In this document: in pieces, positions 61,524 to 63,940 of the stretch | Position numbering within the stretch: the first letter of the stretch is position 1 | Layout: the number at the start of each line of letters is the position of its first letter | Origin: Escherichia phage U1G | Sequence record: NC_070872.1 | Length of the DNA: 64,000 bases | Reading direction: 5' to 3' (one strand) | Translations under genes and position numbers: made by a program | Notes under the pieces: model-generated | Seen by the model: only the letters and a program-made list of their open reading frames with translations | What the model was told of the DNA's origin: nothing | Databases searched by the model: none

Positions 61524-61814
61524 TTGAGAATCTATATGAGAGTTCACGACTCTAAAGATGAATACAAAGAGCTAGACCATACCAAGGCTGGCTTCTTCCC
61601 GGGTGATATCATAATCACCCACGATGATGATACATTCCATGAGTTGTCTGGAATTATGCTGTTAGAGAACCGTCCTAACATTACCATCAAAGAACCAAGA
61701 GAAACTTATACTTTAGATAAAACATTTTCCTCTCTTGTGTTCTTCACAAAATTACCTCATAGTGTCTCTGTCAGACGAGAGAAAGACAGCGTTCGGATGA
61801 TGGTGACGATGTGA
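61524..61814 (+). CDS. small protein, paralog family member 1 (motif HELSGIMLL)
   Basis: 96 aa; shares central motif with ORFs at 62015, 62379, 63017. Confidence 0.4.
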   Translation: MRIYMRVHDSKDEYKELDHTKAGFFPGDIIITHDDDTFHELSGIMLLENRPNITIKEPRETYTLDKTFSSLVFFTKLPHSVSVRREKDSVRMMVTM

Positions 61815-61962
61815 TTAGTCATACCGCCTAGTAGACAGTGGCGGTACTCGTAAAGAGTTAATAACTTCTACAGTCAGGGTTGCCCGGCTCCTTTCCTACC
61901 TAGTAGGCTAACGATACACATGTATCTAGGGTGATGAACTGACCCGTGATTGAAAACGGTAA

Positions 61963-61998
61963 GGGGTAGAGTCGAGAGGCTCTACCCCATTTCTTTTT
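61963..61998 (+). terminator. rho-independent terminator/attenuator inside the small-ORF array
   Basis: 9-bp stem ggggtagag / ctctacccc followed by atttcttttt; RBS aggagg and ATG 62015 directly downstream. Confidence 0.5.
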
Positions 61999-62014
61999 CA
62001 GGAGGTATGCAAAT

Positions 62015-62413
62015 ATGAGCATCTACGCTTTTGATATTGATATTACTGGGATACTTCGTAATCAAGAACCTTATTACCTTGGGGAACCAGAAGTAGTAAG
62101 TAAGTTCATTACCCCGTGGCAAACAGTATTCTTACCTGACTGTGAAGAGTCACATGAGGTTATTGGTTCTCTTTTCCTATCTAACTTGCAACTAAATACT
62201 AAGATACTTACTGAACCAAAGGTGTATGACCTTTCCTTTTACAGTGACTTTAGTATGGTCTTCCCTGGTGTTAGGTTCTATAAAATACCTGGTTGGGAAT
62301 TGATAGCTGACCATAACGTCTTTAATAAAACACTTTCCATTTACTTCAGACCTGCCCCTAAAGGAAGGAAAATTAATCATGAAATTCATAATGACCGTCC
62401 CCAGTTATGCTGA
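62015..62413 (+). CDS. small protein, paralog family member 2 (motif HEVIGSLFL)
   Basis: 132 aa; SD-like aggagg 9 nt upstream. Confidence 0.45.
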   Translation: MSIYAFDIDITGILRNQEPYYLGEPEVVSKFITPWQTVFLPDCEESHEVIGSLFLSNLQLNTKILTEPKVYDLSFYSDFSMVFPGVRFYKIPGWELIADHNVFNKTLSIYFRPAPKGRKINHEIHNDRPQLC

Positions 62414-62693
62414 AAGGGAATCTTTGTATACAAATGACTTCACTTTAGAAGAAGTCATGAACAGTAGCTCACAACGTGTAATCCTGGTTCCTACTCTAGA
62501 GGACTACCATGAAGCAAGAGGTCAGTTATTCTTAGCAGGTAGTGACCGTAAGGTTATATGTATCATTCCTCCATCAGTATACGCTGTTAGTAGTGCTCAT
62601 GATGCTCTACCATTCATGATGGTATCTGATGAGTACCAGTGGGATAGTCATTATGAGAATGAGGAATACCGTTACTACTATGTAAGGAAATAA
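62379..62693 (+). CDS. small protein, paralog family member 3 (motif HEARGQLFL)
   Basis: 104 aa; overlaps the previous ORF end. Confidence 0.45.
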   Translation: MKFIMTVPSYAERESLYTNDFTLEEVMNSSSQRVILVPTLEDYHEARGQLFLAGSDRKVICIIPPSVYAVSSAHDALPFMMVSDEYQWDSHYENEEYRYYYVRK

Positions 62694-62696
62694 GTT

Positions 62697-63017
62697 ATGC
62701 ACCTGTACTGCCTTATTAGCTTTGCCACTACTTGCTATCTATCCCCATATACGCTGGATAATATCCTGGCAGGTAAGGAGAGAGTTACCACCATCCTATA
62801 TGAGCCAAGTGAAGAAGCAGAAGTGTTCATTGGTACTTGCTTAATGTTGGGGCAGCCTATCAAATTTATTAAGATAGAAGATTCCGTGGAAGTACCAGAA
62901 CACACTAGTGTGTACATACTATCTGTGAATGAGCCTATGGTAGTAACTACCCTAACCGGTAGACTTATTACCCTCTACCCTTCTACCTCATATTTATCTA
63001 GCGACGAGAGCCTCTAA
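62697..63017 (+). CDS. small protein, divergent family member 4
   Basis: 106 aa; weaker match (EAEVFIGTCLML). Confidence 0.4.
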   Translation: MHLYCLISFATTCYLSPYTLDNILAGKERVTTILYEPSEEAEVFIGTCLMLGQPIKFIKIEDSVEVPEHTSVYILSVNEPMVVTTLTGRLITLYPSTSYLSSDESL

Positions 63018-63301
63018 TGGTTATCAGTAAAGTTTATCCAGAACCTAATGGGGAGGATTACATTCTACATAAAGATGTAGATAACCTAGATGCTGATGTA
63101 CTTATCCTGGTTCCAGACGAACAGTCCTTGCATGAACTACAAGGATTACTTTTCTTATGCAATAAGAATTCAGTAGTACATTTACTAGAACCAGGAACAC
63201 CAATGTCCTGGCAAGGTAGCTTTAGTCCTTGGCACCTCAATACAGATAAGTACATCCTATCCTTCGAGGATGACACCCCTGTATATAAGGAAAGACAATG
63301 A
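63017..63301 (+). CDS. small protein, paralog family member 5 (motif HELQGLLFL)
   Basis: 94 aa; start overlaps the previous stop. Confidence 0.45.
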   Translation: MVISKVYPEPNGEDYILHKDVDNLDADVLILVPDEQSLHELQGLLFLCNKNSVVHLLEPGTPMSWQGSFSPWHLNTDKYILSFEDDTPVYKERQ

Positions 63302-63612
63302 AAATAAACACATCCCCATACCCAGTACAACTGGAGATAGTTAATGACAGAGAAGTCTTCCGAAAAAAGTACAAGAAGCTCAAAGGGTACGAACCAGACA
63401 TAGAAGGTTGTAAGGGTTTCACTTCTTACTCCGGCAATAAGGTTCTTATGGGTATCTTTTCAGAACCCTTACCGACACTTATCCATGAAGTAAACCACTT
63501 CTGCTTATGGGTATTTGATTACATTGGTATGCCTGTAAACAGTAGTAACAGTGAAGCATACTGTTATTACATGGATAGCATTCTTGAACAGGTATTAAAG
63601 CATGAACGTTAA
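63298..63612 (+). CDS. small HExxH protein (putative zinc metallopeptidase-like)
   Basis: 104 aa with LIHEVNHFCLWVFDY (HExxH). Confidence 0.4.
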   Translation: MKINTSPYPVQLEIVNDREVFRKKYKKLKGYEPDIEGCKGFTSYSGNKVLMGIFSEPLPTLIHEVNHFCLWVFDYIGMPVNSSNSEAYCYYMDSILEQVLKHER

Positions 63613-63940
63613 GCTCTTAGGCATGAATGGTACAGACTTACTGCACTATTCCTCTGAACCAGAGAAAGCAATCATCCACGCTATGCCCTATGGTAATCCT
63701 ACTCTAATAATGGAACCTGGAGAGTTAGCAAACTTTGCCCAAGGGCATAAACTGCTTACTAACAGTAATGCTGAGATAGTTATCCTCAACGAACATGATT
63801 GTTACCTTGCTCCGGAAGGAGACTACTTCCACATCTTCTTACCCGTAAAAATAAGAGCCAGTGTGGTGAGGGAAGGTAACTCATTCAGGACTATACGTTT
63901 CATAAACAAAGCTCCCTCCTATTTAACTGCTTATAAGTAG
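63602..63940 (+). CDS. hypothetical small protein
   Basis: 112-aa ORF, overlapping start with the previous gene. Confidence 0.4.
   Translation: MNVKLLGMNGTDLLHYSSEPEKAIIHAMPYGNPTLIMEPGELANFAQGHKLLTNSNAEIVILNEHDCYLAPEGDYFHIFLPVKIRASVVREGNSFRTIRFINKAPSYLTAYK

Follow-up and report, generated by a model that had tools for sequence, protein, structure and literature searches.

A predicted superfamily of diverged N4 gp70/gp71 paralogues in a tandem gene array at the right end of the Escherichia phage U1G genome

By comparative analysis of a 64,000-nucleotide (nt) stretch of Escherichia phage U1G (record NC_070872.1; hereafter the window), we found that six of the seven small plus-strand open reading frames (ORFs A to G) packed at positions 61524-63940 almost certainly constitute a single superfamily of diverged paralogues of the N4 gp70/gp71 family with a common core, and that the seventh, ORF F, is an unrelated small HExxH protein. 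The grouping would unite six orphan families of the PHROGs database (7213, 9160, 11661, 12099, 16338 and 12606), all listed there as 'unknown function', into one lineage-specific, tandemly expanded superfamily, a link that is absent from PHROGs and from the papers found. N4 is a classic model phage, its relatives are therapy candidates, and its right-end genes gp70-72 have never been given a role. The superfamily, expanded from two to six or seven copies, thus offers a small gene set to search for what determines strain-specific host range or counter-defence in Gamaleyavirus, Moovirus and Kaypoctavirus. Current understanding is not yet changed by these findings.

All seven ORFs of the original prediction are present, and at least four of them had been said to carry the motif HE[LVA]xGx[LM][FL]L. 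In a six-frame translation of the window this motif occurs exactly four times (at 61638, 62153, 62508 and 63131), always inside the array, and it was never found in 200 shuffled sequences. The ORFs concerned are A (61524-61814, 96 amino acids (aa), phrog_7213), the orthologue of N4 gp70 and the member conserved most widely; B (62015-62413, 132 aa, phrog_9160), the orthologue of N4 gp71; C (62379-62693, 104 aa, phrog_11661); and E (63017-63301, 94 aa, phrog_16338), the hub of the superfamily. Each of the seven ORFs matched its own PHROG with E-values of 1e-37 to 1e-63, weak reciprocal cross-matches were seen among A, B, C and E, and the A and B profiles matched N4 gp70 and gp71 at 1e-38 and 1e-46, respectively. 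Blastp among the seven ORFs returned in-register alignments of 26-28 bits, and against orthologues from related loci the cross-family matches went down to 1e-4 to 1e-5.

Formal profile comparison extended the similarity beyond the short motif. With family alignments built from 16 loci and 243 database proteins, hhalign reached, over 43-65 columns, 96.2% (E = 2.5e-9) for the pair C-E, 93.5% for A-E and 89% for B-C, and it gave 69% for A-C, 68% for B-E, 35% for A-G and 29% for D-G; the merged profile of A, B, C and E (ABCE) scored 62% against G. Reversed-profile controls all remained at or below 1.2%, with scores of at most 16.4 versus 31-52 bits for the five real pairs among A, B, C and E. ORF F (63298-63612, 104 aa, phrog_1365) did not exceed 1% against any array family or the merged ABCE profile and is unrelated by this measure.

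Hidden Markov model (HMM) searches with one family left out at a time recovered the omitted family in every case (A 4e-7, B 9e-8, C 1e-10, D 3e-6, E 7e-8, G 4e-6), and the best non-array ORF among the 374 six-frame ORFs scanned had an E-value of at least 0.48. ORF D (62697-63017, 106 aa, phrog_12099), formerly proposed as a weaker fifth copy, is recovered in this way, and ORF G (63602-63940, 112 aa, phrog_12606), in which the motif reads EPGELANFAQGHKLL, likewise behaves as a divergent member. Repeated duplication and divergence of one small gene would accordingly extend to six ORFs, not four or five. Two bridging sequences (P0131 and P0133) combine a C-type strand with the G-type 'NFAQG', and the ABCE profile also matches a G-type protein of phage KP8 and a D-type protein of phage Moo19, the latter keeping the H-E pair that ORF D of the window has lost. 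No further superfamily member was found elsewhere in the 64-kb window.

Could the shared motif be coincidental or compositional, the ORFs being unrelated small genes or partly spurious? Such an account would agree with pairwise identities of just 11-28% between the paralogues, with their placement in six separate PHROGs despite remote-homology clustering, and with the weak direct pairwise profile scores of D and G. It conflicts with the confinement of the motif to the array, with reversed-profile scores far below those of the real pairs, and with leave-one-out E-values of 4e-6 or better over a background of at least 0.48. Moreover, the median ratio of nonsynonymous to synonymous substitution rates (dN/dS), calculated for the window ORFs against their orthologues in 16 related loci, is well under 1 for each ORF (0.11-0.33 for all seven, 0.25 for ORF A), versus 0.00-0.05 for the neighbouring gene gp69. 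All seven ORFs are real genes, under purifying selection that is 5-10 times more relaxed than that on gp69, and we give the coincidence explanation virtually no credence, regarding it as already refuted.

At the DNA level, no repeats longer than 19 nt were detected between the copies, and we therefore rejected the idea that the motif arose by recent duplication or gene conversion. Orthologous subtypes are present in Moovirus and Kaypoctavirus as well. Together, the lack of DNA repeats and the existence of these subtypes place the duplications before the separation of these genera and make them ancient.

The superfamily alignment begins with an N-terminal M-x-[ILV]-[YF], followed by a hydrophobic strand, [PST]-x-x-[DE], a helix with (H-E)-h-x-G-x-h-h-L-x-[NG], a second strand, [EP]-P and, further on, a near-invariant Pro. 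In the AlphaFold2 (AF2) model of ORF E, which is of low confidence (predicted local distance difference test (pLDDT) 66.7), a beta3-alpha-beta4 arrangement is seen, in which the motif covers a strand, the P-D/E loop and the only helix. The shared motif is real and backed by homology, but its H-E pair is frequent, not invariant: it is kept in A, B and C and swapped for HI, YE, AY, HA, EL or LF in D, G, several E-type ORFs and members from KP8 and N4. The near-invariant residue of the motif is the Gly, and only this Gly and the downstream Pro reach 90% conservation. If the acidic cluster and H-E formed an active or metal site, the paralogues would be enzymes, for example small hydrolases or nucleotide-modifying proteins, with D and G as pseudo-enzymes; we consider this quite unlikely. 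Judging from what is not conserved, H-E is dispensable, and the paralogues are therefore more likely to be non-enzymatic, single-domain binding proteins than enzymes.

Searches of Pfam, NCBIfam, PADLOC and PDB sequences with the seven proteins and their profiles returned nothing meaningful, in line with the initial impression that no characterised family is represented; weak matches to GYF, IraD, Cas-lambda and DUF5672 were dismissed as noise.

Region 61400-64000 is 96.8% identical to Escherichia phage PGN829.1, and the 57 phage records that match it are nearly all Gamaleyavirus (G7C-like phages of the Schitoviridae, Enquatrovirinae). These matches identify the window as a Gamaleyavirus (G7C/N4-like) genome and the array as its right end, past the terminase genes. 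The locus occupies the right end of the PhAPEC5, PGN829.1 and N4 genomes, after the minus-strand genes gp67, gp68 and gp69, of which gp68 is the large terminase and gp69 is labelled small terminase in the KP8 and Moo19 annotations. The gp69 homologue of the window is the minus-strand ORF 60663-61352, and in annotated relatives the first two plus-strand ORFs are described as similar to N4 gp70 and gp71. The array is always found between the small-terminase-like gp69 and the terminal repeat, divergent to the terminase operon, and its guanine-plus-cytosine (GC) content of 39.7%, versus 43.4% for the genome, is at the low extreme among 2-kb windows. The Moo19 GenBank record (its ends are our loci L017 and L018) is linearised within the array, with A as the last gene and B onward as gp1-gp6; consequently, the 'gp1-gp7' of that record are right-end array genes, not left-end early genes.

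The superfamily appears to be confined to Enquatrovirinae. A HMMER search with a six-sequence profile returned 18 clusters at E<=1e-3 among 1.84 billion cluster representatives, and a search of 5.8 billion proteins returned 671, which, among the matches listed, were all encoded on N4-like contigs of ~70 kb and lacked a Pfam domain. By tblastn, ORF A was found in Gamaleyavirus, Moo19 and the Klebsiella KP8-like phages.

Copy number varies across N4-like genomes, from one or two members (N4 and a divergent contig) through four (G7C) to six or seven (the window phage and Moo19), and the ORFs are not conserved single-copy core genes of known function. The N4 array consists of A, B and then gp72 (42 aa); that of G7C (locus L010) is A-B-C-D, that of ECBP1 is A-B-C-D-E-F, and the window phage, PGN829.1 and PhAPEC5 share A-B-C-D-E-F-G. 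In other loci A-B-C-D is followed by G'-E', G'-F-G or G'-F-E'. Locus L012 has only A and F; KP8 has A, B, three further members and F; and Moo19 has six or seven members without F. In the metagenomic Gamaleyavirus genome L007, D is split (array coordinates 1396-1554 and 1585-1722), which reflects either apparent pseudogenisation or a sequencing error. In L014, a more distant N4-like locus, no member was detected. By this distribution, A and B are ancestral to Enquatrovirinae, and C and D are fixed in Gamaleyavirus. Variability among close relatives, as expected of accessory genes, is seen for E, F, G and their variants and for C-D outside Gamaleyavirus, and not for A and B.

Several database labels in this set deserve mention. 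Protein P0005, which is 100% identical to ORF E, carries the NCBI name 'hypothetical protein [Enterococcus faecium]' and comes from a 2.76-Mb contig, and one 'Enterococcus' phage record holds an F homologue; both are likely contamination or mislabelling of coliphage sequence. In records OY979416.1 and OY978778.1 (Klebsiella-labelled phages), small array ORFs are auto-labelled 'exonuclease', 'DNA primase', 'major head protein' and 'tail length tape measure protein', which are almost certainly annotation shifts or errors.

The distal part of the array contains a conserved junction of 25-27 nt, CCCTCCTATTTAACTGCTTATAAG(TAG), at 63914-63940 (the 25-nt segment is given as 63914-63937), which encodes the C-terminal tail PSYLTAYK. 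With the junction as its 3' end, an ORF that is the last of the array or close to it acquires this tail, be it G (window, L002 and L005), an E-type ORF such as E' (L004, L006, L007 and L009), D (L010, i.e. G7C) or an F variant. In array-oriented coordinates it is located at 2334 in L004, 2681 in L005, 2339 in L006, 2340 in L007, 2660 in L009 and 1682 in L010. ORF D contains a diverged internal copy of the tail (PSTSYLSS). Since the sharing of 3' DNA by different distal ORFs is a signature of cassette gain and loss, the distal cassettes look as if they were gained and lost by recombination at this short conserved junction. The alleles are mosaic as well: the A protein of the window is 80% identical to that of PGN829.1 and has its best match (92%) in phage ZQ2, and the identities to PGN829.1 for C-G are 98-100%.

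With regard to function, we tentatively favour, at somewhat less than even odds, the reading that the paralogues are accessory modulators of host factors or defences, which would act in middle or late infection rather than in takeover and would have diversified by duplication and cassette exchange. An accessory role is favoured by the variation in copy number, the exchange of cassettes, the relaxed constraint, the low GC content and the restriction to one subfamily. The mass-spectrometry table of Moo19 virions, which lists no array protein, points the same way: the array products are not virion components.

Accessory anti-defence and host-modulation loci are represented by anti-CRISPR (acr) loci and by variable 'moron' regions. 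The array resembles these in its small, packed, AT-rich ORFs, which evolve faster than core genes, in variable presence and in cassette exchange. PADLOC, which covers defence proteins, had no match for the array proteins, and no literature was found on their involvement in defence or host inhibition. The array also differs from such loci in having no helix-turn-helix regulator and in being located at the last-entering end instead of an early region; the paralogy of its members to one another is also unusual for acr-type loci. A closer comparison is provided by N4 gp70 and gp71 themselves (YP_950548 and YP_950549), the orthologues of A and B, which follow gp69 and are separated by the same spacer and terminator; N4 has these two members and the 42-aa gp72, whereas the window phage has six.

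A host-takeover role, as suggested in the original prediction, fits the position of the locus poorly. In the N4 model, entry starts with the left end, and early and middle transcription are required before the whole genome is inside (PMC4496689). On this model the right end enters last and the locus would not be immediate-early, which argues against an immediate-early takeover role. For the same reason, we did not adopt the array as the source of the unexplained restriction-modification (RM) resistance of N4 and Gamaleyavirus (PMC11990801): expression of a gene at the right end would come too late to shield the incoming DNA, so that this resistance probably does not come from the array.

The same position can be read differently. 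The paralogues might serve a phage-intrinsic, terminus-associated function that is not directed at the host, for example by aiding the terminase at the genome end, by protecting or priming the right DNA end, or by regulating the divergent late (terminase) operon. The fixed location between gp69 and the terminal repeat, divergent to the terminase operon, is what this explanation would predict, as are the occurrence of A and B in all four genera examined and the purifying selection on all of the genes; the unrelated F homologue of phage Possum also lies between TerS and TerL. It accounts less well for a copy number that ranges from one or two to seven, for the free exchange or loss of distal members (E-G are missing from G7C and C-G from N4, and L007 has a split D), for dN/dS values 5-10 times that of gp69, and for the lack of a detectable member in L014, although packaging is universal. 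We regard a terminus-associated role as unlikely.

A more specific version of the host-directed reading is that the paralogues form a battery of inhibitors, each acting against a different mid- or late-infection immune sensor or effector of the host. Candidate targets would be sensors of terminase, portal or replication intermediates, genes for which adjoin the array; the spacer and terminator between A and B would be a new cis-regulatory RNA whose gating of B-G depends on the transcribing enzyme, one of three N4-type RNA polymerases, and the 25-nt junction would be a site dedicated to cassette exchange. This scheme is very unlikely to hold as a whole.

Returning to the array as a set of paralogous accessory modulators, we consider the overall explanation, which blends near-certainty about paralogy and architecture with a functional reading that falls short of even odds, to be moderately probable. 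The following points weigh against it: i) the membership of D and G depends on profile and transitive evidence, with direct pairwise hhalign values of 25-35%; ii) all Enquatrovirinae genomes examined have A and B beside the terminase genes and the terminal repeat, which would fit a phage-intrinsic role equally well; and iii) the sequence upstream of the array gave no convincing match to a sigma-70 promoter, an N4 early hairpin or a repeated middle-promoter motif. In the literature we found neither a paper on these genes nor a time-resolved transcriptome of N4 or G7C.

The tight packing and translational coupling originally described for all seven ORFs hold for B to G, which overlap or abut (a 35-nt overlap of B and C, a 3-nt gap, and then overlaps of 1, 4 and 11 nt). 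They do not hold for ORF A, which has an AAGGAG 5 nt upstream of its TTG start codon and the N-terminal M-x-I-Y of its paralogues, and which is separated from B by a non-coding, strongly structured spacer of 200 nt (61815-62014, plus strand) containing a terminator. The predicted minimum free energy of the spacer is -71.8 kcal/mol (z = -4.38) and its GC content is 46.5%, versus 38-40% in genes A and B. Among Gamaleyaviruses its median Jukes-Cantor distance is 0.05, compared with synonymous divergence (dS) of ~0.5-0.6 in A and B and 0.25-0.43 in gp69.

Sequence blocks of the spacer and two hairpins can be traced in N4, KP8, Moo19 and L012, and both hairpins show compensatory changes. Hairpin 1 (ACCGCC...GGCGGT, 61823-61845, plus strand) is located directly 3' of the ORF A stop codon and has no T-run; across the four genera its basal pair varies between CG, AU and GU. 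A pattern scan of viral contigs for hairpin 1 yielded mainly the N4-like genomes already compared and chance matches, and did not enlarge the covariation set. The second hairpin belongs to an intrinsic-terminator-like element, noted earlier as a strong internal terminator (61963-61998, plus strand), which is also annotated as a terminator in PhAPEC5. Its hairpin at 61963-61988 has an 11-bp stem with seven GC pairs and a 4-nt loop, followed by the T-run ATTTCTTTTT, which extends to 61998. Stem variants TAGAG/CTCTA (window), CATAG/CTATG (Moo19) and ATATG/CATAT (L012) show that double substitutions keep the stem, and N4 and KP8 have their own hairpins at this position.

Only 3 nt separate the end of the terminator from the ribosome-binding site of ORF B, AGGAGG. 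This leaves no room for a promoter between them, and the B-G operon must consequently be expressed by read-through of the terminator. ORF A is a unit of its own, and we propose that the spacer and terminator would act as an attenuator setting the ratio of A to B-G, possibly in a different manner for the host RNA polymerase and phage RNA polymerase II (RNAPII). The spacer may be such an attenuator, a 3'-untranslated region element or a small RNA (sRNA). Extensive, time-dependent terminator read-through was described for the N4-like phage LUZ7, for which sRNAs have also been proposed (PMC9163698). The terminators concerned are similar to the present one in combining a GC-rich hairpin and U-run between co-oriented genes, with downstream genes relying on read-through. 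Unlike these leaky terminators, the terminator described here is the 3' end of a 200-nt element kept across four genera, with a constraint ~5-10 times stronger than that on synonymous sites, which is more than a plain terminator needs. The constrained spacer and terminator are a regulatory RNA candidate, in a phage whose genes are transcribed by three RNA polymerases one after another.

Base pairing is conceivable between a CUCCU/CCUCCUU block in the spacer and the AGGAGG of the ORF B ribosome-binding site. Comparison of the spacer with Rfam gave no match at E<=1, and a hammerhead-like 'GATGA...GAAA' was rejected on this basis. The spacer block TAATAAC-N5-CAG was likewise discarded as a repeated middle-promoter motif, with 9 matches in the window versus 6.2 expected.

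The 171 nt that separate ORF A from the divergently oriented gp69 (61353-61523) contain a GC-rich hairpin, GGGGT-GAGAT-ACCCC, at 61400-61414. Across 11 Gamaleyavirus loci this hairpin and its flanks (61390-61425; TTCTTTTCTT...TTGAAGAAAC) are almost unchanged, and both can still be recognised in N4. Read in either direction, the hairpin does not look like a terminator, and it may act as a promoter or operator. It was rejected as an N4 early promoter, the type used by the virion RNA polymerase, as it has neither the 3-nt loop nor the TT(T/A)TGGA flank of the N4 P1 and P2 early-promoter hairpins, which were located at N4 positions 90 and 559. A simple sigma-70 promoter scan of 61353-61523 found no site scoring at least 9 of 12, and the nearby plus-strand match at 61300-61328 falls inside the gp69 coding sequence.

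The HExxH protein noted at 63298-63612 is real (H63, E64 and H67 of ORF F), but it is not a paralogue of the other six ORFs and does not belong to the array family. Its 105 close homologues are all encoded on N4-like contigs, and tblastn detected further ones, at 24-32% identity, in Kuttervirus (Ackermannviridae), a Guernseyvirinae siphovirus, Ralstonia and Achromobacter Autographiviridae, and Cbunavirus. In six sequences at this level of identity, from Gamaleyavirus, Kaypoctavirus, Guernseyvirinae, Kuttervirus, Autographiviridae and Cbunavirus, residues P7, Y8, G40, G52, F54, H63, E64, H67, E86 and Y90 are invariant, and H63, E64 and H67 are near-invariant in 54 close homologues. Such a distribution marks ORF F as an independently and horizontally mobile gene, and nothing here ties it functionally to the paralogues.

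The AF2 model of ORF F, which is of high confidence (pLDDT 95.1, predicted template modelling score 0.87), has a topology that differs from that of the superfamily, consisting of a strand, a backing helix, two strands, a long HExxH helix and a helix with E86 at its start (residues 85-103). E86 would be the third zinc ligand, on the helix after the active-site helix, a role suggested by the model. This mini HExxH...E zincin-like layout is, we presume, that of minimal gluzincins. Foldseek comparison of the model with the PDB gave structural scores that were all below conventional significance. Compared with minimal gluzincin, ImmA-IrrE and SprT-like HExxH metallopeptidases, ORF F has no Pfam, NCBIfam or PDB-sequence match, comprises just 104 aa and lacks a partner domain. 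It is most likely a candidate small zinc-dependent hydrolase or peptidase of the uncurated family phrog_1365, which would act independently of the paralogues. This HExxH...E protein occurs in at least five unrelated phage groups and is a tractable target for biochemistry.

The genomic settings of F homologues in unrelated phages are diverse. In Pectobacterium phage Possum (Cbunavirus; locus L023, 1816-2163) the homologue is the gene between TerS and TerL mentioned above, and others occur in loci L020, L021 and L022. In PhiSH19, an unannotated ORF matching F is found just downstream of the coding sequence labelled 'NrdA.1', overlapping its 3' end.

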